A stretch of 32,000 nucleotides of DNA from an uncultured Clostridia bacterium (GTDB lineage Bacteria > Bacillota > Clostridia > Christensenellales > Aristaeellaceae): positions 6 through 32,005 of the forward strand of contig CALGBY010000036.1 of NCBI GenBank assembly GCA_937886445.1, read 5' to 3'. Positions 3,201-31,135 of this stretch are shown piece after piece. Under the pieces are notes generated by a model. The model was not told where the DNA came from and did not search any database. It saw nothing but the letters and a program-made list of their open reading frames with translations. Position numbers and translations under genes: made by a program. Positions within the stretch are counted from its first letter, which is position 1. Each line of letters opens with the position of its first letter.

Positions 3201-5450
3201 ATTATATGCTTCTTGCCAAGCGACCTCTGTGCATGGTATTTCATATAGGCCATCTCCATCCCAATCTTGACTGACGAAATAATAAGGATTGATCGGGTTT
3301 TCATAATCAACGGGAAGTGCAACAGGTGTTCCTCCACCAGACGAAGAAGTCATATTTCGCTCAGAATCCTCAATGAAATGTTCATCGTTTTCTGGTATAG
3401 GCGGAAACGTTTCCATAGGCGCAATAGTTTGCATCAGCGAATAGTCTGGTTCCTGTGTCGATTCTGGAGCAGGTGTTTCTTTTACTTCTGAAATATACAC
3501 ATTTTTATGGCCGATTTCCGGATTGTCATCCGATGTTCCGAGCGCGTAAATGTAAACATCTTGGTTTCCATACAAATCCGTTGAGATTGTGGCATTGAAT
3601 CGATGGAAACCGGTAATTCCATGTGCGTTGTTTACATCATCGCTATCAAGATCGGCAACGCCAATGGAGTAACCTCTGCCGATACCGGCAGGACCACCGA
3701 TGTAGACATGAATTGTCAAGGAAGCCTCCGGACCGTCCGGGTCGAATGCCCAACCAGAAACACAAACAGTTCCTCTGCTACCTTCAATAGAATCTACGCA
3801 CCCTATGGGATCATGATTAATCTGCTGAGAAGAAAGGTTTTCTGTTGATCCTGTCAGGTAAATAAAACCAGAAAGACCTGAGTCATCAAGTGATTTCCAT
3901 TGGCCAACTACATATCCATAGCATGGGGGGCCATCAAAATCTGTACGTCCGCCTTCAGTTACGTAATATCCGCCATTGCCAACAGCCGTCACATAGGCAA
4001 CATGGACTGCGCCATTTTCGCCATAAACAGCTATTGAGTTTACCTTGGGAGATGCGCCTGTTGCCAGACCGTATCCTATTGCACTTTCCAGCCATGTGTT
4101 GGCATTACCCCATGCGGGTAATTGTATGCCAAGTCGATTATATGCTTCTTGCCATGCGACCTCTGTGCATGGTATTTCATATAGGCTGTCTCCATCCCAG
4201 TCCTGACTGACAAAATAATATGGATTAATTGGGTTTTCATAATCAGCAGGCAGAGCTATAGATGCTCCTGTAACATCTGATGACGACTGGTTTGTCTCGG
4301 TGGTCGCATTGAATTCCTCTGCGATTTCAATTCCTGTCATTGGCGGAAGCGTTTCCATAGGTGCATAAGTTGGCATCAGCGAATAATCCGGTTTCTGCAT
4401 CGGTTCCGGAGTAGGGGCTTCTTCTGAGATGTACACGTTTGCATTGCCAATTTCAGGGTTATCATCCGATGTTCCAAGTGCATAGATGTAAACATCCTGA
4501 CTACCATACAGATCAGTTGAGATCGTAGTACTAAACCGGTGGAGACCGGTAATTCCATGAGCATTGTTTACATCATCACTGATAAGATCGGTAACTCCAA
4601 TTGAATAGCTTTTTCCAATACCGGCAGGACCGCCTATATATACATGAATTGTCAAAGATGCCTCCGGATTGTCTGGATCAAATGCCCAACCGGCAACATG
4701 AACGGTTCCATCGCCTCCTTCAATAGAATCTACGCATCCTATCGGGTCATGATTATTCTGCTGAATTGGCTCTGCTTCTTCTACTTCAATGCTAACTGTT
4801 GCAGGCGTCGTTGATATTTGATAATCACCCACATACCAATAACCTAGCATATGGTCAAGAATACCATTTTGGGAATAACCTTGCAATTTCCATGGATGAC
4901 TAAAAGACGATTCTGTGAGTGTGCCAAATCCACTTTCATTAACACAAGCCCGAACATCCGAATCAGCGCAATACAATGTATCACTGACGTATCCGGTCAA
5001 AAGAACTGCGTGTCTATTAGAAGTATATTCATTAGAGTACTCGCAGTAAAGTACAATTCCTTCAGGGCTTCTGTCCAAATACTCTTTCAATTCATCCAAA
5101 CTGCAAGCTCCAGAATGATATAGAACATGGACATAGTCACCATTGGTGAAAGGATAGATGAAATTCCAACTAAGGCCTTGTCCGTCTACCCAACCATAAG
5201 GCTCAACGGATTGTTCCGTAACACTTTGCCAGTTTGATGAATCTCCACCGCCATAATAATAACACATTCCGCGAATCATCATGGCAGCTGCCGCCAAAGT
5301 GCATGTATAGCCTGTTGCCTGTGGCATTACCAATTGAGTTGCATAACTACTTCCGTTGTTGGCAGCATAGCCGGATTGTCCGCAGAAAAAACTCAACAAA
5401 CAGACCAATATCAGCAAAAGGACTACTTTCGGGCATCTGTTGCATCTCAT
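255..5450 (-). CDS. Secreted multidomain cell-wall hydrolase: signal peptide; papain-fold C39-like Cys peptidase; 2 x (beta-sandwich + CHAP); DUF3298/RsiV-like domain; 2 SH3b-like domains; C-terminal discoidin (F5/8 type C)
   Basis: ORF track gives 255..5504. I trimmed the start to ATG 5450 (MRCNRCPKVVLLLILVCLL...), which has SD AGGAGA at 5461-5466 and a 10-nt spacer. ATG 5459 is only 1 nt from the SD, and 5504 would overlap the upstream stop. Motifs in the translation: hydrophobic signal ending GYA/ANN; GYTCTLAAAAM ... NRHAVLLTGY (Cys/His, papain-like); YEIPCTEVAW ... HVAYVTAV twice (CHAP Cys/His); HGNGGGTAWWDYTNGFTFDLKTGK (DUF3298-like); ITDLNGDGIPDLIY; WRFGYIQ and VRGFVPRENI (SH3b-like); AVDHNIETSWQ ... 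VSEIEAWG (discoidin-like). Confidence 0.85.
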   Translation of the reverse strand: MRCNRCPKVVLLLILVCLLSFFCGQSGYAANNGSSYATQLVMPQATGYTCTLAAAAMMIRGMCYYYGGGDSSNWQSVTEQSVEPYGWVDGQGLSWNFIYPFTNGDYVHVLYHSGACSLDELKEYLDRSPEGIVLYCEYSNEYTSNRHAVLLTGYVSDTLYCADSDVRACVNESGFGTLTESSFSHPWKLQGYSQNGILDHMLGYWYVGDYQISTTPATVSIEVEEAEPIQQNNHDPIGCVDSIEGGDGTVHVAGWAFDPDNPEASLTIHVYIGGPAGIGKSYSIGVTDLISDDVNNAHGITGLHRFSTTISTDLYGSQDVYIYALGTSDDNPEIGNANVYISEEAPTPEPMQKPDYSLMPTYAPMETLPPMTGIEIAEEFNATTETNQSSSDVTGASIALPADYENPINPYYFVSQDWDGDSLYEIPCTEVAWQEAYNRLGIQLPAWGNANTWLESAIGYGLATGASPKVNSIAVYGENGAVHVAYVTAVGNGGYYVTEGGRTDFDGPPCYGYVVGQWKSLDDSGLSGFIYLTGSTENLSSQQINHDPIGCVDSIEGSRGTVCVSGWAFDPDGPEASLTIHVYIGGPAGIGRGYSIGVADLDSDDVNNAHGITGFHRFNATISTDLYGNQDVYIYALGTSDDNPEIGHKNVYISEVKETPAPESTQEPDYSLMQTIAPMETFPPIPENDEHFIEDSERNMTSSSGGGTPVALPVDYENPINPYYFVSQDWDGDGLYEIPCTEVAWQEAYNRLGIQLPTWVGNANTWLASAKECGLVTGDSPQVNSIAVYGENGAIHVAYVTAVDNGGYYVVEGGRTDFDGPPYYGYVVDQWKSLDDSGLSGFIYLTGSSENLPLQPTNFDVIEQPEESQLVLSEQSDDRLIRIDFMRHDLSYILPSGYEAEFVFDQPVILGDETGIASINQFFEKKYQTYSQDVRSFKQSEESGELIEYADCLIIPEDERLLPITGDFLSSAIQYCQNDLLSVILIEHGNGGGTAWWDYTNGFTFDLKTGKQLTLEDLVVSTGYSAEEFRNKLFQIITDAQKRDYPDDNGTNIFKLTQPLDLESLSFFISRNGEIFLSFLEEEIAPMWYGCPVIATGIVINSALKVEATTNEPFVVPNSLKHETDDFLNASNSNILSAYRTQLQSDESAIRLYENWAVNFRNRGHGQYASDGIAITDLNGDGIPDLIYLSAENEPGSIFSTVEGEVDNIHLNIWTTLDNGRTLMPVTIRLPWLENPFHLGTVEPDRYLHFEYTDFVLGYCNWENDKRIALLDRFDETISEIGTYIINRDGATEYTIFDYLYEADATYTDGTVYSTNPSISASSYQNEVLQAIDTCIIAVGDRCMWKGDSIAMNLDEIINSINTVTQQPQISLPGNNDRSVSENQVPATTQQTNPSGVIYDSELLVSNLPAVSPVPDPYLLPTFALCERRNKKYPVYSAPSTKSWRGSNGKAAVSLNGDTYICGRTSDDWVMVKYQTDKGNWRFGYIQLPSAGSYDLLNFTSLPAYVAKESQLTDDPIKQSTKIVKIAQTKEVTYLATFENWAYIETTVKKKTVRGFVPRENIVINSGALLIPSFVNASSWIVNSKIPNSYAAESAVDHNIETSWQASLRDVRSADDIFFDYYLQVPSSISSLHIKNGFWLITNGKDQYTRNSRMKKIEVSFQYGNNSNFTDLQTFTIPETKDWKSRNLGVCFDLRGHYNVTAIRIRIKGYYKGSAYPKDICVSEIEAWGQQ
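2901..4757. repeat. Intragenic tandem duplication, 2 units of about 0.92-0.94 kb (2901-3821 and 3837-4757), each encoding one beta-sandwich + P/T/E linker + CHAP module
   Basis: Protein residues ~250-556 and ~562-868 of the track ORF are near-identical (NHDPIGCVDSIEG...FIYLTGS). At the DNA level, 2901 ttctgatgatcctgtcaggtaaataaaacc matches 3840 ttctgttgatcctgtcaggtaaataaaacc. Identity continues at roughly 80-85% by eye, with a 3-nt indel (WGNAN vs WVGNAN). Confidence 0.9.
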
Positions 5451-5496
5451 TTTCGTCATCTCTCCTAAAAAAGTCGCAGCTTTAAGCTTCTGCCTA

Positions 5497-6741
5497 TTAA
5501 TCAAGATTTACAAATTCAACACCGTAGTTATTTAGTGCTGAATAGTTGCCTTCTGCTGCCTGTACTGCCAAAGTATTATAAATTTCATTGTTGTAAATCG
5601 GAACCGCAGTTACTTCATAACAATTATTTTTATTCTTCAAAATTGTAACAGCACATATGCAACCCTCATCTTCATCCTTACTTACACAATATATCCAATA
5701 AACTGAATCTTTCGCATCAAGAGAGGGTGTGGCAAAATTAATCCTCATTGTTGACTGGGCTACAATTTCGGTCTCAGTACTAAAATTGTAGTTTATATGG
5801 GTAGCAAACATATGGTAATTTGTAAATTTGTCATCAGAATACTCAGTTGAGTCAAGGAATGCCTTCATATCCACAGCCTGCAAATCCCACTTAACGCAAA
5901 GCTGCGGATTATTATTTAGCAAAGCACATTTTTGGCACAAATCCTTACATTCTGGGGGAATGGCAACTGATCCATTGCTCCACTTCCACATATCGTTACC
6001 ATCGGCTGCCATGCTTGAGACAAGTCGATGAATCAATTCATTTACGGTAAGGGTGCTTTGATACTGAGTGTTGGCAAGTACAGACAGAATTTCTTCGGCC
6101 TGCGACTTGGTAAGTTTAGGCGTTGAGGCTTTAGAAAGCTTATATTCAGATAAAGCTCTCTTGAGGTTAATTGAAACATCGCTAAATATTGGTACTGTCG
6201 CTGCGCTAATTGCTCCTTCACCATTGAAGAAGCAAATGCAAACAGCACTCGTTTTCTCTGCACCGCTTATCTCAACAACATATACTGCTTTTTCGTTTCC
6301 AGAATAGGCATAACTGTTGTTAAGATTAATGGTGCTTCCAGATGAGCATGCCGCCACAGAAACCGATCCATACGAAGCTAACGCATTAAAAAGTGCATTA
6401 TTGATTTCCGTTATCACATCATCGGATAAACTTCCGTCAATCTTAAGTTTGTAAACAGTCACTTTCGATGCCTCAGTATCACCGAATTGGTTTTTATAGT
6501 TATTCAACAATACTTGAACACTTTCATTTAACCCGAATCGTGTCATGTTTTCTACCGTTATAGCGTCAAGCATTTCATTTGTCTCGCGCAAAGCAACTGT
6601 ATACGTAACAACCGCCGAATCAGCCGAAAGAACCTGCGGATCGGCTGTTACCTGTTCATTTTTCATTCCGCAAGCCGATAATACGCCTGTAACGAGCAAA
6701 AGAATAATTGCCAAGGATAGCCATCTGCTAATTTGCTTCAT
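5497..6741 (-). CDS. Lipoprotein of unknown function (414 aa)
   Basis: N-terminus MKQISRWLSLAIILLLVTGVLSAC has a lipobox L-S-A-C after a hydrophobic segment. The gene lies 27 nt downstream of the preceding gene and 46 nt upstream of the hydrolase gene, on the same strand. I recognised no family motif. Confidence 0.8.
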   Translation of the reverse strand: MKQISRWLSLAIILLLVTGVLSACGMKNEQVTADPQVLSADSAVVTYTVALRETNEMLDAITVENMTRFGLNESVQVLLNNYKNQFGDTEASKVTVYKLKIDGSLSDDVITEINNALFNALASYGSVSVAACSSGSTINLNNSYAYSGNEKAVYVVEISGAEKTSAVCICFFNGEGAISAATVPIFSDVSINLKRALSEYKLSKASTPKLTKSQAEEILSVLANTQYQSTLTVNELIHRLVSSMAADGNDMWKWSNGSVAIPPECKDLCQKCALLNNNPQLCVKWDLQAVDMKAFLDSTEYSDDKFTNYHMFATHINYNFSTETEIVAQSTMRINFATPSLDAKDSVYWIYCVSKDEDEGCICAVTILKNKNNCYEVTAVPIYNNEIYNTLAVQAAEGNYSALNNYGVEFVNLD

Positions 6742-14628: not shown

Positions 14629-16377
14629 TTATGCAGTTTGTTCTTTCAGCTTGCGCTTTTCAGCCCGTTTGTTTCTCTCGTAGATCCTGCGATGCTTCAA
14701 TTGGTCCTGACGTTTCTGCTCCTCCGGCGTAAGCACGACCGGCTCCGTCGGTACCGGAAATTGACCAATGAAACTGAGATAGATATCGATCCTACGGGAA
14801 CGTTCACCATCAGTGTCCTTCTCTATTTCGTAGACAACGATCTTCTCAACAAACTGACGAAGAACATGATCCGGAAGTTCGTCATCATTCTGATACTTCT
14901 TTGCGAGATCAAGAAAGCGCTGCGCGTTTTTCTCTTCATTCATCGCATCTGCCAGTTCTTTTTCAGCCAGCATCAGAAATTCCTTTTGCGTTGAAAGCTC
15001 TTTTTCCCATTGGGCAGACAGTTCTTCATACATACGCCCGGAGGTCTGGCCCAGCGCGTAATCCTCGTACAGCTTCTTCAGCATCCGGTTCAGTTCATCG
15101 ATCCTGCGTTTCCGGTTAGCGATCTCCTTTTTCAGTGGCACAACTTCTTCCGGTTTTACCTTCGATGCTTCCCAGATTCGTTGGATAAATTCAGCTTCAT
15201 TCGCAATCGCGTATTGGCTGACAGAACGGATCGTTTTCTGAAGCAGCAGACGCAGCTGCTTGATACTGAACCAATTCTTGATACATAGCGCGGGAGTGCT
15301 TTTGTTCGTCTGGCAAGTAAAGAACTCATAATGACAGACTTTCCCGGACGGCATCAGACAGTCATGCTGGATTTCATACATAGGTGCTCCGCATTTTCCG
15401 CAAAAAACGATACCTTTGAACGGGCTGCGTTCATGTAATGTGTGTGCTGTATCTTTTCGGCTTTCGAGCATTTCCTGTGCCTTGTCCCATAGTTCCTGAG
15501 TGACAATAGGATCGTGGGTATCCTTGAAAATCAGCCATTGATCCTCCGGATTTTTCGTGCGCTTGGTCTTATAGGTTTTCTTTGCTGTTTTCGCGTTGAC
15601 GGTCTCACCAAGGTACTCACGGGCTTGAAGAATACCTTCAACAGAAGAACGACTCCAGTCAAAAGGTCCGGCTTTAGCATTTGCCAAATGGGTCCTTGCA
15701 GCGTTTATTCCTTTCTGAAGGTAATAGTTGCAAGGCGTAAGACGCTTTTCATCACACAGAATCCTGGCGATATGATTCGGATTATTTCCTTCAGCAGCCA
15801 GCTCAAAAATATGTCGTACAGTCGCGGCAGCTTCCGGGTCAATGATCCACTTGTCTTTATCAGACGGATCCTTTAAATATCCAAAGATAGGCGTTGAGAT
15901 CAGCGGCTTTCCCGACATTGCTTTGGCACGGAAGCCCATCGAGACTTTACGCGACAGATCATGAAGATAGAGCTCGTTGAAGATATTCACGAATGGAGCA
16001 AATTCATTGCTGTCACTGAGCATATTGTCTACCCGGCTGTCTATCGCTATGAAATGAACATTCAGTTCACTGAAATACACTTCGGAATAATACCCGGCTT
16101 TCAGATGATCACGCCCCAGACGGCTCATATCTTTGACGATCACGGCACCAATCTTGCCGGCATCAACATCCGCGATCAGTTGATTCCAGGCGGGACGGTC
16201 AAAGGTTCCTCCACTCCATCCGTCATCAGTATAGTCCACACAGTTTGTAAAACCGTGCCGGTCAGCATATTCTCTGAGATATTCCTTCTGATGCTCGATG
16301 GAAACAGAATCCCCATAGTTTTCATCGTCGCGGGACAGGCGCTCATACAGCGCGGTCAATTTGTTCTGATTCGTCAT
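14629..16377 (-). CDS. Large serine recombinase (TnpX/TndX-like), copy 2
   Basis: LTALYERLSRDD (catalytic Ser), DMSRLGRD, a recombinase domain, a Cys-rich zinc ribbon (CGKCGAPM...C..FFTC), a coiled coil, and a DUF4368-like C-terminus (FVEKIVVYE...IDIYLSFIG). Confidence 0.95.
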   Translation of the reverse strand: MTNQNKLTALYERLSRDDENYGDSVSIEHQKEYLREYADRHGFTNCVDYTDDGWSGGTFDRPAWNQLIADVDAGKIGAVIVKDMSRLGRDHLKAGYYSEVYFSELNVHFIAIDSRVDNMLSDSNEFAPFVNIFNELYLHDLSRKVSMGFRAKAMSGKPLISTPIFGYLKDPSDKDKWIIDPEAAATVRHIFELAAEGNNPNHIARILCDEKRLTPCNYYLQKGINAARTHLANAKAGPFDWSRSSVEGILQAREYLGETVNAKTAKKTYKTKRTKNPEDQWLIFKDTHDPIVTQELWDKAQEMLESRKDTAHTLHERSPFKGIVFCGKCGAPMYEIQHDCLMPSGKVCHYEFFTCQTNKSTPALCIKNWFSIKQLRLLLQKTIRSVSQYAIANEAEFIQRIWEASKVKPEEVVPLKKEIANRKRRIDELNRMLKKLYEDYALGQTSGRMYEELSAQWEKELSTQKEFLMLAEKELADAMNEEKNAQRFLDLAKKYQNDDELPDHVLRQFVEKIVVYEIEKDTDGERSRRIDIYLSFIGQFPVPTEPVVLTPEEQKRQDQLKHRRIYERNKRAEKRKLKEQTA

Positions 16378-18145
16378 TTTCGTTGGCTCCTTCTTTATTT
16401 TTCATAGCGGCTTTCTTTGCCTTATACCTGGCATCTCTTTCCCGGTTCTTGGCGCGGCGGAGACGATCTTTCTCAATCGCCGCAAGCTCTTCGGGGGTCG
16501 GTTCCGGCTTTGGTATCTGGAAATTACCGATGAAGCGAAGATAGATATCGACCTGGATATGCCGTTCACCGTCAATTTTTGTCGGCGCGTGAACAAGGAT
16601 CTTATCGATAAACTCATAGATCATCGGGGTCGTCAGTTCCTCGGCGTTTCTGTACTTTCGGGCCAGTGCCATGAAAGAAGCGATATTTTCGGTATTGGCT
16701 TCGTATTCATCCAGGGTTGCCTGATCCGAAGAAAGGATCTCTTTCAGTTCCGCTTGTTCCTTTTCATAACCCGCATGCAGTTCATCGAAACGATCTTCCG
16801 GCATCTTGTCCAGCGCGAAAAGCTCGTACAGTTTCTTGATCAGCACATCCAGATCATCACAGCGTTTTTTCGCCTTTCGTATCCGGGCTTTCAGTTCCTT
16901 GGCAGCGGCTTCTTTTTTCAGTTGTGCCTCACTTCTCAGTTTCTGCTCAAATTCTTCCTCGTTTTCGATGGCGTATTTGCTGACTTCACGGATCGTTTGC
17001 AGGATCAAAGACCGGACAGTATTGGTACTGATACAGTGAGATACACATTTCAGCGTTGACCGTTTGTTGCTCAATGTGTAATTGGAGCAGTTATACCCAT
17101 CAAGGGAAAGAGAACCGTTTTCCTTCAATCCGCTCCGATGATTGTACATTCTAGCACCGCAGTCTGCGCAATACATGAGTCCGGTCAGCGGATTTGCTTC
17201 GCCCAGCGTATCGGTACGTTTTCTGCTTTTCAGCGCCCTTTGGGCGAGTTCCCATGTTTCCTTGCTGACAATCGCTTCATGCGTGTTTTCAAAAATGACG
17301 TATTTCTCGGGGCTGTAGAATTGACGTTTGTCTCTGAAAAACCGTTTTCCGGAACGAAAGTTTACGGTATGTCCCATATACTCCGGATGTGTCAGGATAC
17401 GGGTCACGGTAGCGCCGTTCCAATCGCAGGCCCGATCCGGATCGGTGATATAATCCTGACGCAGACCGCATTTGTGCTGAGAGAAATAGTAACCGGGACT
17501 GTCTACATGCTCCTTGGTAAGTGTTCGGGCGATATCAAACGGTCCATGTCCTTCGCAGGCGAGACGGTAGATTCGACGAACGATCTCCGCTGCCTCTTCA
17601 TCGATCAGCCAGTGCAGTTTTTGATCCGGGGCCTTTTTGTATCCGTAGATACAGTTGTTATTGGTAGGAAGTCCGGCATGACCTTTCAGCTGATACGCTG
17701 CATTCATTTTTCGTGACTGATCCTTCAGATACCATTCATTCATGACATTGAGGATGGGAACAAATTCGCCGGTTTCCGGGTTCAGATTGTCCACGCCGTT
17801 CGCAATCGCGATGAAACGGATGTTGAGTTTCAGGAACAGGACCTCTGTGTAATATCCGGTTTCCAGATAGTTTCGACCGATACGGCTCATGTCTTTGGCG
17901 ATTACAATGCCGACCTTTCCAGCTTCGATGTCCGCGATCATTTCCTTCCACGCGGGACGGTTGAAGTCTTTTCCGCTCCATCCGTCATCTGTGTAGTGTT
18001 TGCAGTTGGTGAATCCGTGCTCATCGGCATAGTTTTTCAGATAAGTTTTCTGATTGATGATCGAGTTGGAATCACCCTGCAGGTCATCATCGCGCGATAA
18101 TCGTTCATACAGCGCGGTGATCAGGTTCTCTTTGTTTTGCTTCAT
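16343..18145 (-). CDS. Large serine recombinase (TnpX/TndX-like), copy 1
   Basis: Same architecture as copy 2: ITALYERLSRDD, DMSRIGRN, CADCGARM...C, FIDKILVHA...VDIYLRFIG. SD GGAAGGAGAG lies before ATG 18145. The 3' end overlaps the start of copy 2 by 35 nt. Confidence 0.95.
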   Translation of the reverse strand: MKQNKENLITALYERLSRDDDLQGDSNSIINQKTYLKNYADEHGFTNCKHYTDDGWSGKDFNRPAWKEMIADIEAGKVGIVIAKDMSRIGRNYLETGYYTEVLFLKLNIRFIAIANGVDNLNPETGEFVPILNVMNEWYLKDQSRKMNAAYQLKGHAGLPTNNNCIYGYKKAPDQKLHWLIDEEAAEIVRRIYRLACEGHGPFDIARTLTKEHVDSPGYYFSQHKCGLRQDYITDPDRACDWNGATVTRILTHPEYMGHTVNFRSGKRFFRDKRQFYSPEKYVIFENTHEAIVSKETWELAQRALKSRKRTDTLGEANPLTGLMYCADCGARMYNHRSGLKENGSLSLDGYNCSNYTLSNKRSTLKCVSHCISTNTVRSLILQTIREVSKYAIENEEEFEQKLRSEAQLKKEAAAKELKARIRKAKKRCDDLDVLIKKLYELFALDKMPEDRFDELHAGYEKEQAELKEILSSDQATLDEYEANTENIASFMALARKYRNAEELTTPMIYEFIDKILVHAPTKIDGERHIQVDIYLRFIGNFQIPKPEPTPEELAAIEKDRLRRAKNRERDARYKAKKAAMKNKEGANENDESEQIDRAV

Positions 18146-18362
18146 TTTCTATCTCTCCTTCCGAAGCAGATTATTTCCGCCTTCACCTATTGGACAAAAC
18201 AGAACTGATTTCGGAACTGTTTTTGAAAAAAAAGTAAAATATTTTTTCGGTGAGGCTTTCTTATTGATATATACAGTCAAAATCCAGCCTTGCCCTGAAA
18301 TGCCGCATAATTGCAACAGAAATGATTTTAGCAGGGCTCTGGTTGCAAAAATGCAACCACGA

Positions 18363-18665
18363 TCACGCGGAAATGAACCCGAGAACAGAATATAGCAGGT
18401 CAGCTATCTTGCCGATGATCCAGACAGCGGCATGCGGAAAAATTACGAGGAAGATTCCGATCCCTGCTGTCTGCCAGACCATGTGTTCCGGAGCGTGTGT
18501 GATCCATCCTGCGATAGAGCCGATGATGAAAATACCGGCCAGCAGATTTGTCGCGATAGATGAGATACCGATGAACAGGGAGCACAGCAGGTGGCAGATG
18601 AAAAGGACGATTGCCAGCGGAAATGTGATGATCTTGAGTGGGAATTTGATGATTCGGATCAGCAT
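18363..18665 (-). CDS. Small 3-TM membrane protein (paralog of 19600..19887)
   Basis: ATG 18665 (MLIRIIKFPLKIITFPL...) lies 7 nt after AAAGGAG. The longer track ORF lacks an SD. The protein has three hydrophobic segments. Confidence 0.65.
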   Translation of the reverse strand: MLIRIIKFPLKIITFPLAIVLFICHLLCSLFIGISSIATNLLAGIFIIGSIAGWITHAPEHMVWQTAGIGIFLVIFPHAAVWIIGKIADLLYSVLGFISA

Positions 18666-18724
18666 CAGCGGACTCCTTTCTGTCATGGGGACCGGGGAAA
18701 AATCCCCGGTCCGGAGCAGGGGTT

Positions 18725-19066
18725 TCAGGCATAAATCAGTTCGTTCATGATCAGTTTCTCTGCCTGAGCCTTCAGCGCGTTCATCTGCGCGACCCATTCC
18801 ATCTGGTCCGATGCTTTCAGACTTTCCGAAGGACGCAGGGGGCTGTTCATCATCAGATCCAACCGGTCATTGGCTGCATTGTCGATTTCGTGCAGATGCT
18901 CCATGAGTTTTCCGGACAGCAGCAGATAATTGAATCTGCCGGGGTGTTCTTTCCGAAGATAGTCCATACGGAGCCGACCATATTTGCCCAACGGCTGTTG
19001 ATCCTGTTCAGACAGTCCCATGTCGGGGAAAAGGTAGTCGCCACAACGGAAATAGTTCAGTTTCAT
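18725..19066 (-). CDS. tnpV: TnpV-family transposon protein (copy 1)
   Basis: ATG 19066 lies 6 nt after GGAGGA. MKLNYFRCGDYLFPDM...LGKYGRLRMDYLRKEHPGRFNYLLLSGKLMEHLHEID...DQMEWVAQMNALKAQAEKLIMNELIYA matches the Tn4451 TnpV family pattern. Confidence 0.85.
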   Translation of the reverse strand: MKLNYFRCGDYLFPDMGLSEQDQQPLGKYGRLRMDYLRKEHPGRFNYLLLSGKLMEHLHEIDNAANDRLDLMMNSPLRPSESLKASDQMEWVAQMNALKAQAEKLIMNELIYA

Positions 19067-19141
19067 TCTCATTCCTCCAATCAAAAACAGTAGTCAGGAT
19101 GTTCCGCGAACAAAGCGTCGCTTTGTTCCTTTACATTCTAA

Positions 19142-19510
19142 CTACTGTATATGTTCGTGATCTGTATGGGTGGCAACAATGAAAGCATGATTTCCTTTCA
19201 GTAATCTCATTGCAAGTTCATAGCCACATTGATTTGCTTCTTCCGGTGTGATTTCACCTGGCTTGAATGATTGCCGAAGCTGATAAGCGATAACTTCATG
19301 ATCGTAATGCCGACCGGTATTAGCAATATACGAATTGCGCGCCAGTAGAAATTCGTGATCAACAGTTTCCGGATCACAAGCATAAGAAGATATCAATTCA
19401 CCACCATTTGTTTTTTCACTATTCATCGCGTACGCGGTACGTTCTTTCAAGCATTGTGCAATGGTCTTTCCTTTGTTGATATGCATTGGAATGATACGAG
19501 TAGTTGCCAT
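19142..19510 (-). pseudogene. 5' fragment of a MOBP-type relaxase gene (TnpZ/Mob-like), truncated inside the His motif
   Basis: MATTRIIPMHINKGKT..., VIAYQLRQSFKPGEITPEEAN and GNHAFIVATHTDHEHIQ* are present. Relatives continue H-x-H-N-H and extend several hundred more residues. Here a TAG at 19142-19144 ends the ORF at residue 122. No remainder is present in any frame of the window. Confidence 0.75.
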
Positions 19511-23495: not shown

Positions 23496-26400
23496 TTATC
23501 GTGAGTAATCCGTTGGTGTGCGATGTTCGCCATAGTGGCAAGGTTCCTTCAAGCCTTCCAATACAGAAGGCTTATCTTCCGCTTCCACTTCATGTGCTTC
23601 CTGCATGTTATGCTGATCCATGTTCAATTCAGCATCCAGTTCAGCTAATCGGCCACTTTTGGTGCGAAGTTCATCTTCCTGCGGGAAAGGCTTTCCGATT
23701 TCTTCCTTTGCCACAGCCATCTGCTGTTCCATGCTGACCAGATGATCATGCGCGTTTTCGACTTTCTTCTGCATCTGAGCCAGTGCGTTTTCGATACGGA
23801 TGATATTACCGTCGGCAGAGTTGCCGATATCAACACGGTGAGTGAAAGCACCGTGCATCAACAGACGGAACTTGTTTTCAAACGTGTCGTATTCGATTTG
23901 CATGCTCAAGCCACGATAGGAACCGATCTCCGGAGATTTTCCGAAGGAAGCAGTCTTGCATTCTTCCAGGATCGCTTTACCTGCTTCTTCCTTATCTGTG
24001 ATGAAATGTCCGTGAATCGTCATACCTACGAAACCTTCTTCCGGTAGCGGATGGGAAGCAACAGTAGCAATATCCTGATTGATACCGGCGATAATACGCT
24101 GATCCTGTTCGATCTGCTGCGGGAAATACTTCAGCAGTTGATCTTCCAGACGATACTGCTTGCTCTGATGGTCTGCTTTCATCAGTCTCAACCGCGCTAC
24201 ATCTACATCCAGGTCCATTTTTTCCTTGATACGGGGATCACCGGCGCACAAGGCTTTGATCTCGGCGTAGGAAAGCGCAGTTTCATCCACGTCATCGCAG
24301 GAACGGACGGGGCTTTTGCTCGTCATGATCTGAGAGATGAATTTCTGCTTGTTCTCAACCGTCTGCCAGAGATAGGCGTCGAAGGTTGCTTCCGTCACAT
24401 AGCGATAGATGAATACATCCTTGTTCTGATTACCTTGACGGACAATACGGCCAGCGCGCTGCTCAAGGTCACCGGGTCGCCACGGACAATCAAGGTCGTG
24501 CAGGGCTACCAGCCTGTCCTGTACGTTCATACCGGCACCCATCTTCGCAGTACTGCCCATCAGCACACGAACCTGTCCGCTTCGCACTTTTGCAAAAAGC
24601 TCCTTTTTGCGAACTTCGGTATTGGCTTCATGGATGAAGGCAATCTGTTCCGCAGGGATGCCCTGAGCAATCAGCTTGGAACGGATATCATCGTAGATAT
24701 TGAAATTCCCATTGCCGGTTTCTTCCGGAGTGAGAATATCTGAAGGCTGTTCCTTGCCGTCAGAGGATTTTCCGCGAGGCGTAGACAGATCACAGAACAC
24801 GAGCTGTGTAAGCTTATCCGCCTGCCCGTCACGGTAAATACGGAGAATGTTGTTCACACAGGCATTTACCTTACTGCCCGGATCGTCAGGCAGAAGCGGA
24901 TTGATCAATCGCTGATCCAGACCCAGCTTTCTGCCATCGGAAGTAATCTTCAGCATGTTGTCCTCGGAAGGATCAATGCTGCCGGAATGAACTAGCGCGG
25001 CACGTTCGGAAAGCTTGGCTACCATTTCCTGCTGATGCTCGGAAGGCTTCACAACGACCGTTTCATAGTGAGCGTCCGGTGTGGGCAGATGCAGCTGATC
25101 AGCGGTCTTGATATCAGCCACTTCCTTGAAAAGCGTCATCAGTTCGGGCAGATTGAAGAACTTCGCGAAACGAGTACGGGCACGGTAGCCTGTTCCTTCA
25201 GGAGCCAGTTCAATCGCGGTAGTGGTCTCTCCAAAAGTGGAAGCCCAGGCATCGAAGTGAACCATGCCTTTCTCTTTCAGCGTTTTGTACTGAAGATAGC
25301 GCTGCATGGTGTACAGTTCAGTCATACTGTTGGAAACCGGGGTGCCTGTCGCAAACACAGTTCCGCGTCCGCCAGTAATCTCGTCCATGTACTGACACTT
25401 CAGGAACATATCGCTGGATTTCTGCGATTCGGCAGAAGAAAGACCGGCAACATTTCTCATCTTCGTAAAGAGGAAAAGGTTCTTGAAGGCATGACCTTCA
25501 TCAACAAACAACCGGTCTACACCTAGCTGTTCAAAGGTGACCACATGATCCTTCTTTTCTGCCGCTTCCAGTTTCTGAAGCTTGTTTTCCAACTGGCGTC
25601 TGGTTCTTTCAAGCTGTTTGATGGAGAACTGTTCGCCACGATGATGCTTCAGCTCAGAAATACCATCCGTGATCTCATCGATCTGATCCTGCAGCATACG
25701 CTGCTGGCGTTCCTGGGAAACCGGGATTCTTTCAAACTGACTGTGACCGATAATCACCGCGTCATAATCGCCGGTAGCAATTCGGGCACAGAACTTCTGC
25801 CGGTTGGCTTTCTCAAAATCCTTTTTGGTAGCCACAAGAATATTGGAACTGGGATACAGACGGAGAAACTCCGAAGCCCACTGCTCCGTCAGATGATTCG
25901 GCACAACGAACAGAGGCTTTTGACAAAGCCCCAGGCGTTTGGATTCCATAGCGGCGGCAACCATTTCGAAAGTTTTGCCAGCGCCAACCTCGTGTGCCAG
26001 TAGTGTATTGCCGCCGTACAGGATGTGTGCGACAGCATTCCGCTGATGCTCTCTCAGAGAGATTTCCGGGGTCATACCTGCAAACGCAATATGCTGACCG
26101 TCATACTCGCGGGGACGGATGGAATTGAAAAGCTCATTGTAGCGGGTAACAAGCCGGTCACGACGGTATGGATCCTTCCAGATCCAGTCACGGTAGGCAT
26201 CTTTGATTGCTTGTTGCTTCTGCTGAGCCAGTGTGGTTTCTTTCTGGTTCAGGACACGACGTTCTTTGCCGTCTGCGTCCTCAATCGTATCGTAGATACG
26301 CACATCCCGCAGATTCAGCGTATCTTCCAGAATCCTGTAAGCGTTTGCTCTGTCGGTTCCGTAAGTCACATAGGCTGCAACGTTGCTGGAGGAAATCATG

Positions 26401-29400
26401 GTCTTGCCGTCAATGTTCCATTCAGCCGTGTAGGGAGAAAAGTTGACAGTTAGATACCGCTGAAGATACATGGGAGTACCGAAGGTTTCATACATAAAAT
26501 CCGCAATGGTCTCCTTATCCACCCAGGTAGCACCCAGTCGGACATCAATCTCGGAAGCATCCAGATCCTTGGGTTGAGCTGCTTCCAACGCATGAACATT
26601 CGGTTCATACAAAGGATTGATTTCTGCTGCGGAAATCGCGTCACGAAGCTTCTGACGGACATTGCCGGAAAGATATTCGTCCGCGGTCACATAGGATTCA
26701 AAGAGCGGTGTATGAGTCTGTCCGTTCGGGACCGGGAAGATCACGCCGGTAAGCTGCTGCGTGATTTCCTCTTTGGGAATATCGGTTAACTGCTCCATAT
26801 AATCCAGATCGACTTTAGCCTTTTCCGCGATGGAAATAGCCAGTGCTTCGGTCGCAGTATCTACATGCGCAGCCACCTGATGCTGACGGATGGTGCGCTT
26901 GGTGAACATATCCGCTTTACGGGCTAGTTCACCCTGTTCATTGATCACTTCCAGAGAACAGAGCAGATAGTAGGAAGCGTCTTCAGAGAACACATTGGCA
27001 TTACCGCGGGAGTTAATCAGACCAAACCGTGCGGTATAACTGTCATACAGTTTGTCCAACTTTCTCTGAATAGCATGAATCTCATCATCATTGGCATTAT
27101 CCAACTGAGCTTGAATCAGTTCATTCACGCAATTCCGAAGTTCAACCAGCCCTTTGGCGCGTTCTTTCGCCGTCGGATTCAGATCGGGCTGAATCATGAT
27201 AGAGTTAGTGCGGTAATACACATCTCCGTCAACGACCGTGTAGGAGTAGTTTTTTACATTCGGATCAGCGGGGATCGTGTTTCGGATAGCTTCATTCTCA
27301 TTAAGTTCCGGAGGTTCCGCTTCCAGGTACTGTCCGCTGATATGGGTAACAGCTTCGCGCAACTGCTCTGAAAGGTCAGCGCCTTCGATGGGAACACAGG
27401 CCGTTTCGGTCTGATTCCCGTACATCCGGTTATCCCACACCATTGTGCCGAGGACCATTTCGGGATGCTCGGCAAAATAGCTGTTGATTGGCAATCCGTC
27501 TTCAGTCTGTCCGAGATGCACCCAATCCGGTTCGATAGCAATGGGCTGTTCTCTCTTTTGCAGGAAGATGATATCACTGGTCACTTCAGTGCCGGCATTC
27601 GCCTTGAAGGCTGTGTTCGGCAGACGGATCGCGCCCAGAAGTTCAGCTCTCTGCGCGATGTATTTCCGGACTTCGGGATTCTGCTTATCCATCGTTCCCT
27701 TGGAAGTGATGAAAGCAACAACGCCGCCGGGGCGAACCTGGTCCAATGTCTTCGCAAAGAAATAGTCATGGATCAGGAAGTTATACTTGTCAAAGGCACG
27801 GTCCTGTACCTTATAGGAACCAAAGGGCACATTGCCGATAGCCAGATCAAAGAAGTCCTTTTTATCAGTCGTTTCAAATCCAGCGACCGTGATATCTGCC
27901 TTGGGATAAAGCTTCTGAGCGATTCTTCCGGTAATGCTGTCTAACTCAACACCGTACAGCCGGCTTTCGGTCATACTGTCTGGAAGCATACCGAAGAAGT
28001 TACCCACACCGCAGCTGGGTTCCAGTACATTGCCTGTATGGAACCCCATCTGTTCCACCGCATCATAGATGGCACGGATCACAATGGGACTGGTGTAATG
28101 CGCGTTCAGCGTAGAACTGCGGGCAGCAATGTATTCTTCGGGAGTCAATGCCGCGGACAATTCCACATATTCATCTGACCAGTTGGGTTTGGTTTCATCA
28201 AAAGCGTCTGCCAAACCACCCCAGCCAACATAGCGGGAAAGGATTTCCTGTTCATCGTGTGTTGCGGATCTCTGCTCCGCTTCCAACTGCTTCAGCAGAT
28301 GAATGGCGTTCATATTGGCTTGGAACTTAGATTTCGCACCGCCTTCGCCTAGATGATCGTCCGTGATATGGAAGTTTTCAGCAATGGGAGCAGGAGGCTC
28401 AGGAACACGTTCTTCTTCAGCAGTCGCAGTGAGATCAATCACGATACTACGAAGATGTAGTTCCTCGTCCGGGGTTTCGGTGGATTCATGGACAGGAAGC
28501 AGATTATTATTGCGTTCGTCTTGAGCCAGTAGTCTTTCAAATTGTTCAATGCTTTCGGCACGGAGTACAGGATATACGAGCGTCGGATCACGAAGCTGAA
28601 CACCGAAAGGAGTCTTTTCTTCGATCAAAAAAGCGGTACCGTCCAGATAAACGGTATCGCCGACATCGTAGGTATGAGGTTCTGTACTTTCGGTCTGAGA
28701 GATTACCGGTTCGCTGATTGGTTCGGCAATGGGCTCATCCGCTGTCTCTTCAGCTTCAAGCATTTCATTCGGAACATCCTCCGGAGTGAAATCCTGTTCT
28801 TCTTCGTCGGGTTCTTCCGGAGAAGACATTTCAGCAACTCTCTCTTCCGCTTCACGAAGCTGAAGGACTTCTTTCTCCTTTTCGGTAAGATAGAGATCCT
28901 TGCGAATCAGAGTTACAACACGGGAAGAAACCTGTGACCAGGTGAGAAGCACCTGAGGCGCATCGCCTTTCTGAAGCTGGATTCCCTTGGAATCGTGGTT
29001 CTCGCCGCTGTGGTCGGAGCCGGAAACAGCGTGAGATCTTCCGCCGATTCCATATTCGTTCTTCAGAAAATCGGCTCTCTCTTTGGTGGAATGAGGCGGG
29101 AAAGCAGTGAAATACTGATAAATCCGACCTTTGCCACCGGCAACACTGCTGCCGCCCGTAATTGTTGCGTCAATTTCGTCTTCCGTAATGAAGGTCTGAA
29201 CCCGGGCTACTTCTGTCAGCAGGGAATCATAAGTCCGCCTTGGCATAACCAGTTCATTCAGCGCGGGAACCATGAATTCCGGTGTATAGAACCGGAAACG
29301 CATCAGATCATGATTCTGCCGGTAAGCATCGGTAAAAGTTCTTGCTTCCTCAGTTAACAGAGAAACGAAATCAGGATCTGTGAGTGCATTTGCCAGGCGA

Positions 29401-31100
29401 GCAGTTTCTTCAGGAAAACCTCCTCCTCGCAGAGCTTTCAGTGTCGGCATGTATTCTTCTGCTTCAGAAGCCATATCCCGACTCATATACCACAGACTTT
29501 CAGCGAGGCGTTTCCGTTCATGAATCGGTGCTGAGGCCAGTTCAAGCATACTGAGATACTGACCGGATTCCATCAGATCGCCGATCCTCTTGGCTGCGTC
29601 TTCCCAGGTCAACAGTTGGGACATATGAACATTGCGCGCGTATTTGCCATTAGCAATCCGAATGCCGGAATCTTCATACCATGCACTGTACTGCCTGCCG
29701 TTGATAACCAGACCGTTTCCACCGTGATAGAGGCGTTGCATCCGTTCTGCGATGGTTGTAACAGGCATCTGCTTCATAAAGTCGTTGGCAATGATCAACC
29801 GTAGATCAGTGGTGTTGCCGCCCTGACGCAGTACCTCGTCCACAACTTCCTGGGGTACAGAAAAAGCGAAGGGCGTTTGTACGCTCTCCGCTTCAAGGAT
29901 ATCAATCAGTTCAATCTGTTCACTTTCGCTCGGAACAATGAAACTCATTTGTTCCGAAAGCCGCATCAGTCTGGATTGTTCTTCGGGGGTTAGTTGTAGA
30001 TCAGTTCCGAGAGAATCGTCTCTTCCGCCTGGTGCTGCAGATTGTTCATCTGCGCTACCCAGCTCATCTGATCCTTCGCCTTCAGTTCCTCCGTCACGTT
30101 GTACTGCTTCTTCAGGTTCGTCATCAGGGCTTCCATCCTCGTCTGCGCGGTCTTCTCGATCTCCTGCAGGTGCGGCATCAGCTTCCCGGTCAGGAGCAGC
30201 CGACTGAACAGGCCAGGACGGTTCTCCTTCAGATAGTCTTGACGCATCAGTGCGTACTTGCCCAGCGGGGTGTCGATCTTGTCCGCTTCGGTCAGAATCA
30301 AGTTCGGGAACAGGTAATCTCCCTTCCGGGTGTAAGTCAGCTCGCTCATTTTCATGGCTCCTTTCATAGCTCTTGATAGTTGCTTCGATCTGCCTCAGAA
30401 CTGTACTGCTGATTGTATTGATCGCGGTTCCCAGTTCCATCAGGGCAACGGGAGTGTTCCAGTTGAAGACATCCGCGAAATCTTCTCGTTCAGCTTCCGG
30501 TTCCAGTCCGCACCGGCTTTCCAGAGTGAACTGGAGGCTGTTTGCCGCCAGTTTCCGGAAGGAGGCCCCGATGCTGAAATCATCATACCCCTGCATAAAG
30601 GTATCCGCAACGCTGTCGATGATGTCTCTACGATGCTCGCGCCAGTAATCCAGTGCTTTCCTCTGCGCAATCTGCTCAAGCTGGGCAGCAAGGCCCAAAG
30701 AGGCAAGCGCATCAAAGCGGTCTTCCAGCATATCGGAAACACTGGATAAATGTTCTTCACGTAGAACCCAGGGATTCACGCTCAGAGAATTATGGCGTTC
30801 TCCAGTATCGGACACATCAAATACATAACGCAGTCGCGGACCGTAAGGGGTAGGTGTGATCAGTGCGATGCCCTTTGTGCCCTTGCGAATGTATCTGTGC
30901 ATGGTGTTGTTCCAAAGGTCGAATTCAGCACAGGCCGTCGCATCAGGACGCTGGGCATAGATCAGAAGCTGATCATAATAGTTGTATTTGTAAAGCCGTG
31001 CGGATGTGGTCAGGAAATCAGCCCAGCCGCGGTAATCACCGGCAAGCTTTCGGGCTGTATCATCAGCCAGTTCCACATATTCCTGTGCTTTGTTGGGCAT
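23496..31100 (-). CDS. Polyvalent conjugative-element protein: ArdC-like N-domain, low-complexity linker, uncharacterised domains, N6-adenine DNA methyltransferase, SNF2/DEAD-like helicase
   Basis: ATG 31100 (MPNKAQEY...) lies 7 nt after AAGGAG. ArdC-N-like segment: YDQLLIYAQRPDATACAEFDLWNNTMHRYIRKGTKGIALI. MTase motif I VLEPSCGVGNFFG (27990-28028) and motif IV GNVPFG (27819-27836). Helicase motifs: Walker A VGAGKTFE (25965-25988), DEGH (25491-25502), ATGTPVSNS, and motif VI QRAGRIVRQG (24432-24461). Confidence 0.9.
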   Translation of the reverse strand: MPNKAQEYVELADDTARKLAGDYRGWADFLTTSARLYKYNYYDQLLIYAQRPDATACAEFDLWNNTMHRYIRKGTKGIALITPTPYGPRLRYVFDVSDTGERHNSLSVNPWVLREEHLSSVSDMLEDRFDALASLGLAAQLEQIAQRKALDYWREHRRDIIDSVADTFMQGYDDFSIGASFRKLAANSLQFTLESRCGLEPEAEREDFADVFNWNTPVALMELGTAINTISSTVLRQIEATIKSYERSHENERADLHPEGRLPVPELDSDRSGQDRHPAGQVRTDASRLSEGEPSWPVQSAAPDREADAAPAGDREDRADEDGSPDDEPEEAVQRDGGTEGEGSDELGSADEQSAAPGGRDDSLGTDLQLTPEEQSRLMRLSEQMSFIVPSESEQIELIDILEAESVQTPFAFSVPQEVVDEVLRQGGNTTDLRLIIANDFMKQMPVTTIAERMQRLYHGGNGLVINGRQYSAWYEDSGIRIANGKYARNVHMSQLLTWEDAAKRIGDLMESGQYLSMLELASAPIHERKRLAESLWYMSRDMASEAEEYMPTLKALRGGGFPEETARLANALTDPDFVSLLTEEARTFTDAYRQNHDLMRFRFYTPEFMVPALNELVMPRRTYDSLLTEVARVQTFITEDEIDATITGGSSVAGGKGRIYQYFTAFPPHSTKERADFLKNEYGIGGRSHAVSGSDHSGENHDSKGIQLQKGDAPQVLLTWSQVSSRVVTLIRKDLYLTEKEKEVLQLREAEERVAEMSSPEEPDEEEQDFTPEDVPNEMLEAEETADEPIAEPISEPVISQTESTEPHTYDVGDTVYLDGTAFLIEEKTPFGVQLRDPTLVYPVLRAESIEQFERLLAQDERNNNLLPVHESTETPDEELHLRSIVIDLTATAEEERVPEPPAPIAENFHITDDHLGEGGAKSKFQANMNAIHLLKQLEAEQRSATHDEQEILSRYVGWGGLADAFDETKPNWSDEYVELSAALTPEEYIAARSSTLNAHYTSPIVIRAIYDAVEQMGFHTGNVLEPSCGVGNFFGMLPDSMTESRLYGVELDSITGRIAQKLYPKADITVAGFETTDKKDFFDLAIGNVPFGSYKVQDRAFDKYNFLIHDYFFAKTLDQVRPGGVVAFITSKGTMDKQNPEVRKYIAQRAELLGAIRLPNTAFKANAGTEVTSDIIFLQKREQPIAIEPDWVHLGQTEDGLPINSYFAEHPEMVLGTMVWDNRMYGNQTETACVPIEGADLSEQLREAVTHISGQYLEAEPPELNENEAIRNTIPADPNVKNYSYTVVDGDVYYRTNSIMIQPDLNPTAKERAKGLVELRNCVNELIQAQLDNANDDEIHAIQRKLDKLYDSYTARFGLINSRGNANVFSEDASYYLLCSLEVINEQGELARKADMFTKRTIRQHQVAAHVDTATEALAISIAEKAKVDLDYMEQLTDIPKEEITQQLTGVIFPVPNGQTHTPLFESYVTADEYLSGNVRQKLRDAISAAEINPLYEPNVHALEAAQPKDLDASEIDVRLGATWVDKETIADFMYETFGTPMYLQRYLTVNFSPYTAEWNIDGKTMISSSNVAAYVTYGTDRANAYRILEDTLNLRDVRIYDTIEDADGKERRVLNQKETTLAQQKQQAIKDAYRDWIWKDPYRRDRLVTRYNELFNSIRPREYDGQHIAFAGMTPEISLREHQRNAVAHILYGGNTLLAHEVGAGKTFEMVAAAMESKRLGLCQKPLFVVPNHLTEQWASEFLRLYPSSNILVATKKDFEKANRQKFCARIATGDYDAVIIGHSQFERIPVSQERQQRMLQDQIDEITDGISELKHHRGEQFSIKQLERTRRQLENKLQKLEAAEKKDHVVTFEQLGVDRLFVDEGHAFKNLFLFTKMRNVAGLSSAESQKSSDMFLKCQYMDEITGGRGTVFATGTPVSNSMTELYTMQRYLQYKTLKEKGMVHFDAWASTFGETTTAIELAPEGTGYRARTRFAKFFNLPELMTLFKEVADIKTADQLHLPTPDAHYETVVVKPSEHQQEMVAKLSERAALVHSGSIDPSEDNMLKITSDGRKLGLDQRLINPLLPDDPGSKVNACVNNILRIYRDGQADKLTQLVFCDLSTPRGKSSDGKEQPSDILTPEETGNGNFNIYDDIRSKLIAQGIPAEQIAFIHEANTEVRKKELFAKVRSGQVRVLMGSTAKMGAGMNVQDRLVALHDLDCPWRPGDLEQRAGRIVRQGNQNKDVFIYRYVTEATFDAYLWQTVENKQKFISQIMTSKSPVRSCDDVDETALSYAEIKALCAGDPRIKEKMDLDVDVARLRLMKADHQSKQYRLEDQLLKYFPQQIEQDQRIIAGINQDIATVASHPLPEEGFVGMTIHGHFITDKEEAGKAILEECKTASFGKSPEIGSYRGLSMQIEYDTFENKFRLLMHGAFTHRVDIGNSADGNIIRIENALAQMQKKVENAHDHLVSMEQQMAVAKEEIGKPFPQEDELRTKSGRLAELDAELNMDQHNMQEAHEVEAEDKPSVLEGLKEPCHYGEHRTPTDYSR
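29990..30349 (-). CDS. tnpV: TnpV-family protein (copy 2), nested out of frame inside the polyvalent ORF
   Basis: ATG 30349 lies 8 nt after AAAGGAG (30358-30364), and TAA is at 29990-29992. MSELTYTRKGDYLFPNL...LGKYALMRQDYLKENRPGLFSRLLLTGKLMPHLQEIE...DQMSWVAQMNNLQHQAEETILSELIYN is full-length and collinear with TnpV copy 1. About 99 of 119 codons end in G/C by hand count. Confidence 0.7.
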   Translation of the reverse strand: MSELTYTRKGDYLFPNLILTEADKIDTPLGKYALMRQDYLKENRPGLFSRLLLTGKLMPHLQEIEKTAQTRMEALMTNLKKQYNVTEELKAKDQMSWVAQMNNLQHQAEETILSELIYN

Positions 31101-31135
31101 ACTCAATCTCCTTTTCAGTCAGTTTTGTTAATGTA

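Follow-up and report, generated by a model that had tools for sequence, protein, structure and literature searches.

The question raised by this locus is whether one segment of DNA is read in two frames of the same strand, yielding a complete TnpV protein in one frame and the interior of a giant polyvalent protein in the other. The segment lies in a stretch of 32,000 nucleotides from an uncultured Clostridia bacterium (contig CALGBY010000036.1 of assembly GCA_937886445.1), hereafter the window, which is a Clostridial conjugative element encoding a MobA/MobL relaxase, a CHAP-domain giant protein, a primase/DUF3849 protein and two large serine recombinases. Here, the tnpV open reading frame (ORF), designated tnpV2, is fully contained in the ORF of the polyvalent protein (the host ORF) and is offset from it by +1. 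Comparison with relatives, substitution patterns and codon statistics make it very probable that the two ORFs form a genuine, old and family-wide same-strand nested gene pair.

The nested gene and its host

The nested ORF (29990..30367, minus strand) has its ATG at 30349 and its TAA stop at 29992-29990. The features assigned to it in the initial annotation, namely 119 codons, a Shine-Dalgarno (SD) sequence of its own, the start and stop codons and the offset of one nucleotide, are all confirmed. The proposed check against a TnpV-family hidden Markov model (HMM) returned a full-length match to Pfam PF14198 (profile positions 1-111 of 111, E=1.5e-39, 134.8 bits against a cut-off of 27). The product is also collinear, as had been noticed, with the stand-alone TnpV encoded at 18725-19066 of the window (tnpV1), to which it is 52% identical (E=1e-40). 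Members of the family are expected to have about 114-125 aa, an LGKY motif and a C-terminal W..MN...AEE..L.EL block; the nested product has 119 aa, both motifs are conserved in the alignments, and its sequence includes the segment ...DQMSWVAQMNNLQHQAEETILSELIYN. The AlphaFold2 (AF2) model consists of a beta-hairpin followed by helices and represents a confident small fold, with a mean predicted local distance difference test (pLDDT) value of 84.5. No significant PDB relative, Xis included, was found by a profile search of PDB sequences or by Foldseek with the AF2 model.

The host gene probably starts at the ATG at 31100, giving a product of 2534 aa; its homologues begin at this Met, two codons after the first TTG. 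The Pfam matches SNF2-rel_dom, ResIII and Helicase_C lie above the cut-off and Eco57I methylase is sub-threshold (22-24 vs 25.3 bits), so that several enzymatic domains are united in one giant polypeptide on a conjugative element, as expected of a polyvalent protein. For the first 252 residues (the N-domain), no direct Pfam, NCBIfam or PDB sequence match was obtained, and PF08401 (ArdcN) was absent even at E<=1. A part of it (residues 28-93) nevertheless shares 41% identity (E=4e-18) with the PF08401 region of a polyvalent protein of related elements (L088:282-1664), and a fold search gave ArdC (6i89) as the most probable match, weak and non-significant (probability 0.33). On account of these two similarities the domain is called ArdC-N-like, a designation that is reasonable but indirect. 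The earlier description of this domain as ArdC-like is thus retained through the indirect similarity to the PF08401 region, but it finds no direct HMM match.

Across the nucleotides of tnpV2 the host translation agrees with the D/E/G/R/P/A-rich stretch reported previously. In the AlphaFold model of residues 1-700, host residues 253-392 show a pLDDT of about 30 and no secondary structure at all, with confident folds on both sides; this disordered stretch corresponds to the tnpV overlap plus about 20 residues. The linker is therefore predicted, from the model, to be a disordered inter-domain tether. No Pfam match was found for the downstream domain(s) at residues ~393-700.

Conservation and selection in the two frames

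Over its first 700 residues the host protein has protein homologues that are 43-58% identical to it and cover the query completely. Their linkers align without gaps, which is unusual for a spacer of low complexity, and share the motifs GQVR, AGDR, DE..GGADEQ and DLQLT, because they shadow an intact SD+ATG tnpV ORF; the suspicion that similar linkers ending in DLQL occur in homologues proved correct. In a genome scan for host homologues, the best 80 of at least 591 matches were covered, so rare exceptions may exist. At each of the 80 loci, tblastn places a complete TnpV in the +1 frame, some 750 nt into the host ORF, which is 38-58% identical and reads through tnpV. These loci span Lachnospiraceae, Oscillospiraceae, Christensenellales and others, including the type strains Hungatella hathewayi DSM 13479 and Roseburia inulinivorans DSM 16841. 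Oscillibacter valericigenes Sjm18-20 and Pseudoflavonifractor capillosus ATCC 29799 are further cultivable carriers. An IMG/VR scan with the N-domain as query led to the same arrangement: 30/30 full-length relatives, at identities down to 29%, carry a +1-frame TnpV inside a long host ORF. When pooled, the data comprise 111 unique nested tnpVs, all with SD and ATG, all in the +1 frame, and all of 111-122 codons except one of 153. A phmmer search with the linker alone against 1.84 billion representatives, whose sensitivity is poor because of the biased composition, returned 31 matches, almost all with the linker at ~residue 250-380, N-truncated proteins excepted. Misassembly as the cause of the overlap was rejected, given that over 100 independent assemblies show this architecture.

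The inner gene carries its own conserved initiation signals. In 81/81 sequences the motif GAAAGGA(G/C/T) is followed by eight nucleotides, an ATG and then 113-119 codons, so that the SD-ATG spacing is fixed. In the 111 nested sequences the ATG is always present and the SD positions -16 to -9 are conserved at 94% or more (86% at -9), with variation at the neighbouring positions. Read in the host frame, the SD encodes Glu-Arg-Ser (GAA AGG AGC); E248 and R249 are invariant in homologues because GAA-AGG belongs to the SD, and AGG represents only 10% of Arg codons in the flanks. In 82% of sequences, predictions show the stretch from SD to ATG as more accessible than the sequence around it, and a hairpin hiding the SD was rejected, the region being if anything the more open one. 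A promoter scan found no sigma-70-like promoter just upstream of tnpV on the coding strand. Taking into account this result and the open SD-ATG stretch, TnpV is considered to be internally initiated on the polyvalent mRNA.

In the proposed mechanism, ribosomes coming from the host 5' start would read about 360 nt of the segment in frame 0, giving a disordered tether of about 120 residues that would join the ArdC-N-like domain to the remainder of the giant protein. Ribosomes entering at the internal GAAAGGAG-N8-ATG would read frame +1 and produce a folded TnpV of about 117 aa. The synonymous sites of tnpV, by avoiding T and A and favouring G and C, would keep the host frame stop-free and hydrophilic. 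Judged from the sequences, both products are probably made from the dual-coding segment.

The near-invariant SD-like element inside a translated ORF and the +1 position of tnpV would also be compatible with a programmed +1 frameshift of the prfB type, stimulated by the internal SD and yielding an N-domain-TnpV fusion besides or instead of free TnpV; in the examples checked, the tnpV frame is indeed open for at least 8 codons 5' of the ATG. Such a mechanism is very unlikely, since the ATG is kept in 111/111 sequences at a fixed 8-nt spacing that is typical of initiation, stand-alone TnpVs begin at the equivalent residue, and stops occur in the tnpV frame 8-60 codons upstream, at variable places. 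Furthermore, the SD-to-ATG stretch contains no 0-frame stop and no recognisable slippery or hungry codon, and it lacks the prfB arrangement, in which an SD-like element precedes the shift site by about 3 nt and a stop or a slow codon is present in the 0 frame.

The substitution pattern across the overlap, which the initial annotation had proposed to compare in both frames, follows tnpV, with the host frame nearly free. At tnpV codon positions 1, 2 and 3 the p-distance is 0.258, 0.191 and 0.393, so that the variability tracks the tnpV frame. Pairwise amino-acid identity amounts to 66% when the segment is read as tnpV, and the host frame (47.2%) fares no better than the third, non-coding one (47.6%). 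Among close pairs, the change at tnpV position 2, equivalent to host position 3, is 0.016 vs 0.111 at host position 3 in the flanks, about 7 times slower; tnpV positions 1+2 match the slowness of positions 1+2 in the folded host domains, and the four-fold sites of tnpV, which occupy host position 1, evolve about 50-65% as fast as four-fold sites in the flanks. An OLGenie-like two-frame dN/dS count, a simple counting without a tree, gave omega values of 0.07-0.15 for tnpV and 0.52-1.10 for the host. The purifying selection on the inner frame is thus not explained by the outer frame, and no purifying selection on amino acids of the outer frame was detected within the overlap (47.2% vs 47.6%; omega 0.52-1.10). 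The amino-acid sequence of TnpV is thus strongly held by purifying selection, and the host frame is selected for its openness and its hydrophilic, acidic, disordered character, not for a specific sequence. At synonymous sites the nested tnpVs shift from T to C and from A to G, with CTG and GTG reaching 78% and 76% of their codon families. The linker is consequently rich in G/A/E/D/R/P (68% in the nested set) and nearly devoid of K, C, F, W and M (each <=0.2%) and of I (0.6%), and the equivalent frame of stand-alone tnpVs has a far less biased composition.

The initial annotation had weighed an overlapping pair, towards which it leaned, against a tnpV cassette that landed in a tolerant linker. 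A recent accident of the latter kind, with the cassette persisting in one element as a decaying passenger, could draw on the mobility that tnpV has in principle, the window itself holding a stand-alone tnpV on an apparent Tn4451-like module. It is nevertheless extremely improbable. The nested copy occurs in every intact homologue examined, down to an N-domain identity of 29%, and none of these homologues lacks the tnpV segment or bears a clean insertion scar; SD and ATG are kept in 111/111 sequences, and omega for tnpV is 0.07-0.15, as given above. TnpV also co-diverges with the N-domain: their identities between loci correlate with a Spearman coefficient of 0.86 and a Mantel r=0.92 (reached by 0/999 permutations), and one old event therefore looks likelier than repeated cassette insertion. 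With an intact SD+ATG tnpV in 80/80 genome loci and 30/30 IMG/VR relatives, the overlapping pair is the reading that is borne out.

The open host frame could, in turn, be an annotation illusion, in which the N-domain gene, tnpV and the large gene are separate and the frame between them is open by chance, and some gene callers do report TnpV and the downstream gene with the N-domain uncalled (L081-L087, L091). Even at those loci, however, no stop interrupts the host frame between the N-domain and the large gene, tnpV included. These two parts of the host always share one frame, and no start codon is conserved after the linker in the alignment of protein homologues. Among the 111 unique nested tnpVs there are 0 stops in the host frame, with a mean of about 13.7 in the third frame. 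As controls, 28 other unique tnpVs from the window, IMG/VR and metagenomes were used, all stand-alone except the frameshifted nested copy L090; their host-equivalent frame contains 1-20 stops (mean 5.6), and T occupies 11-35% of their third positions. In the window, tnpV1 has 2 stops in this frame and third positions with 63% G/C and 20% T. The hand counts made earlier for tnpV2 were accurate: 83% of its codons end in G/C (C 0.277, G 0.555), clearly more than in tnpV1, and 11 end in T (9.2%).

Codon shuffling leads to the same result. When the nested genes are permuted among their own synonymous codons, the probability of an open host frame is 0.13 on average (median 0.058) with 2.2 stops expected, and for tnpV2 of the window the frame is open in 1.15% of trials. 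With codons drawn according to flank usage, this probability falls to 0.005 with 6.0 stops expected, and tnpV2 is open in 0/2000 trials with 8.4 stops expected. Both frames are thus open across the overlap, and the open host frame is far beyond chance. The host frame stays open because T is depleted at the third positions of tnpV, which are the first positions of host codons and hence exactly those able to begin a host stop; this mechanism, previously put forward for the window alone, holds family-wide (7.4% T in the nested family vs 23% in the flanks). With no host-frame stop in 111 sequences against about 6 expected and 5.6 in other tnpVs, separate genes under a fortuitously open frame are a highly improbable explanation. 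The coordinates of the features are collected in Table 1.

Table 1. Location of the overlapping features, the control gene and the second ArdcN protein of related elements (window coordinates unless a locus is named).
Feature	Coordinates	Strand	Description	Basis
Nested tnpV CDS (coding sequence)	29990..30349	(-)	119 codons + TAA, +1 frame relative to the host ORF	Pfam PF14198
tnpV Shine-Dalgarno GAAAGGAG	30358..30365	(-)	8 nt upstream of the ATG	
Host polyvalent ORF	23496..31106	(-)	2536 aa from the first TTG	methylase-like and SNF2-helicase regions
Host N-terminal folded domain	30351..31100	(-)	residues 3-252, divergent ArdC-N-like	pLDDT mostly 85-95
Host-frame linker	29991..30350	(-)	residues 253-372, acidic, Gly/Ala/Pro/Arg-rich	translation
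Downstream host domain(s)	29007..29930	(-)	residues ~393-700, same frame as the N-domain	aligned across homologues, folded in AF2
Stand-alone tnpV1	18725..19066	(-)	internal control	Pfam TnpV E=3.8e-33
Second ArdcN protein	L007 1324-1518; L008 1325-1519; L014 1003-1197; L035 625-819; L088 282-1664; L091 1119-3971			

Origin of the overlap and divergent copies

Regarding the history of the pair, tnpV is most likely the older frame: it is predicted to be folded, is tightly constrained and, in stand-alone form, is far more widespread. Overprinting would then have added the linker and joined both sides into one polypeptide. Stand-alone TnpV is found far outside Clostridia, on Campylobacter, Streptococcus, Enterococcus and enterobacterial plasmids; among the best 80 of at least 591 matches, the host module was nearly confined to genomes of the Clostridia type. 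The reverse order, in which TnpV arose de novo within a pre-existing linker and later escaped as a stand-alone family, would fit with a neighbour-joining tree in which stand-alone and nested TnpVs are interleaved, and with stand-alone copies that retain an SD of the GAAAGGAG type (L193). This order is unlikely, since by the usual criteria for overlapping genes the disordered frame, here the linker, is the younger of the two and the folded, constrained TnpV the older, and since stand-alone TnpV extends far beyond the mostly Clostridial range of the host module.

It is possible, though somewhat short of an even prospect, that the linker was born by reading through a resident functional tnpV, which welded two coding regions together, that the segment was then kept across Clostridial conjugative elements and that TnpV became a dedicated partner. 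More generally, TnpV may serve the conjugative or polyvalent machinery as a partner or accessory that is expressed together with it from one transcript.

Several points weigh against the picture of an old, functional nested pair with tnpV as its ancestral member. Internal initiation within a translated ORF and read-through of the linker are both deduced from conservation. The sequences compared are phylogenetically related, and counts such as 111/111 are therefore non-independent trials. No unfused arrangement of N-domain gene, tnpV and large gene was found among the called TnpV records or the N-domain relatives, so that the direction of overprinting rests on general criteria; the interleaved neighbour-joining tree, which comprises 124 TnpVs, is not robust and was not used for direction. 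Finally, as TnpV has neither a PDB relative nor a known biochemical function, its link to the polyvalent protein is one of association only.

Three groups of loci were considered as possible unfused ancestors and rejected. In the first (L081-L087, L091), the apparent separation reflects gene-caller choices over an intact host ORF. The second (L088-L090) is a frameshifted pseudogene whose TnpV frame enters the host downstream domain, and in the third (L158) the N-domain is cut just before the SD by unrelated DNA.

Some of these loci, together with a few others, are of interest in their own right. The frameshifted variant (L088 4214-6971, also L089 and L090) is present on 19 contigs; a frameshift near the end of tnpV produces an ORF of 189 aa, while the host frame meets a stop within tnpV and what remains of the host, with MutS_I, is called separately. 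An AAA_14/DUF4143 gene lies just upstream. It is probably a decaying copy. In L158 (874-1638) the N-domain homologue, 54% identical, ends in ...IKNYCNPSHKT*, exactly at the would-be ERS/SD, and is followed by unrelated phage-repressor-like genes, which suggests a breakpoint at the boundary between domain and linker. The RefSeq stand-alone 'TnpV protein' of a Pusillibacter faecalis megaplasmid (L193, NZ_AP023421.1 485078-485422), which keeps the SD mentioned above, is not preceded by an N-domain, and its host-equivalent frame is interrupted by 4 stops; this gene may have escaped from a nested state, or it may hint at the ancestral one. In L115 (2148-3629), L173 and L177 the host ORF stops about 170-300 nt past tnpV, for a total of 493-502 aa with a short tail, and the tnpV ORF of L115 is the one lengthened to 153 codons. 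The nearest database protein (P0001, 86% identical), encoded on a 3.7-kb contig, leaves the family after ~residue 530 and continues into a Band-7-like region (PF01145); it may represent a chimeric assembly or a recombinant.

Related systems, element context and implications

Nested out-of-frame genes are already known from other systems. In Bacillus subtilis, comS, a lineage-restricted gene of 46 codons, lies in srfAB within a folded enzymatic domain. Like comS, tnpV2 is a small same-strand, out-of-frame gene with its own start, nested in a giant multidomain gene and probably expressed from its transcript. In contrast to comS, however, tnpV encodes a 117-aa member of a widespread Pfam family, its outer frame is a disordered linker nearly devoid of positional information, and several orders of Clostridia share the arrangement. 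Phage lambda Rz/Rz1 and the embedded genes of phiX174 and MS2 are classic cases of overprinting, in which the embedded gene is the novel one and the mobile element needs both genes. They share with the present pair a gene wholly embedded in the +1 frame on a mobile genetic element, but here the host is a conjugative element and not a phage, and the embedded gene appears to be ancestral and the enclosing frame novel. What is new with respect to comS/srfA and Rz/Rz1 is the widespread inner family, the overprinted disordered outer linker and the family-wide conservation.

The TnpVs described so far are stand-alone genes on mobilisable transposons, with an Xis-like role that is only postulated (PMC3158075). 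The nested TnpVs resemble those of Tn4451/Tn4453 in belonging to PF14198, in their length of about 115-125 aa and in the LGKY motif, and stand-alone copies lie beside large serine recombinases, as tnpV1 does; the nested ones differ in being tied to the ArdC-N-like polyvalent gene. The host protein corresponds to the polyvalent proteins surveyed in conjugative elements by Iyer, Burroughs, Anand, de Souza and Aravind in 2017 (PMC5512222), being giant, with a putative ArdC-N-type domain at the N-terminus and with SNF2 helicase, methylase and LPD/MutS-I modules, and being encoded on a type IV secretion system (T4SS)-type element. In that survey TnpV does not occur (0 occurrences) and a dual-coded linker is not mentioned. 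Full-text searches, with subscription journals outside their coverage, returned no prior report of a TnpV overlap or of overprinting or embedded genes in conjugative elements.

Regarding the surroundings of the pair, tnpV1 is located on the minus strand and is flanked immediately downstream by tandem large serine recombinases (16343-18145 and 14629-16377, each with Resolvase+Recombinase+DUF4368) and immediately upstream by a MobA/VirD2-type relaxase fragment of 122 aa (19142-19510). The region 14629-19510 looks like a Tn4451-like mobilisable unit, or a remnant of one, lodged in the conjugative element. Stand-alone tnpVs of the tnpV1 type share the SD context 'gATTGGAGG' vs 'GAAAGGAGc' in the nested genes. 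At the other end of the window, a 1749-aa ORF (255-5504, minus strand) combines a CHAP peptidoglycan-hydrolase domain with a C-terminal NADase_transloc domain (F5/8 type C-like), a pairing that is unusual for a conjugation cell-wall hydrolase. Related elements (loci in Table 1) encode, upstream, a second polyvalent protein with a true Pfam ArdcN domain (together with LPD28/LPD16, YodL and DUF4316), and these elements would therefore have two ArdC-N-type proteins, only one of which carries a nested tnpV.

The overlap is also reflected in the way these loci are annotated. Gene callers that keep TnpV start the large gene just after it (L081-L087, L091; e.g. L085 5205-12354), leaving the ArdC-N-like domain of about 250 aa uncalled, sometimes with a spurious minus-strand ORF instead; callers that keep the long host ORF drop TnpV. 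Most database 'TnpV' entries near the nested type come from contigs of <1 kb. As callers either drop TnpV or amputate the N-domain, catalogues of mobile elements from gut Clostridia mis-state both families.

Long, fully nested same-strand overlaps with strong evolutionary evidence are very rare outside viruses. The present case draws on more than 100 divergent sequences, on frame-specific selection signals and on stand-alone tnpVs as a built-in control; if the linker was indeed born by reading through a functional tnpV, the pair would rank with the longest and best-supported same-strand nested pairs known from cellular or plasmid DNA. Its direction is unusual as well, since it is apparently the enclosing linker that was overprinted and the inner gene that is ancestral, which suggests a route of fusion across an intervening gene and would represent a new way in which genes fuse. 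The two frames can be separated by point mutations that leave one of them silent but are lethal to the other. On the reading of TnpV as a dedicated partner, its synthesis would be hard-wired to the transcript of the polyvalent protein. The TnpV family becomes linked to polyvalent and anti-restriction machinery, which provides a testable handle on its function.

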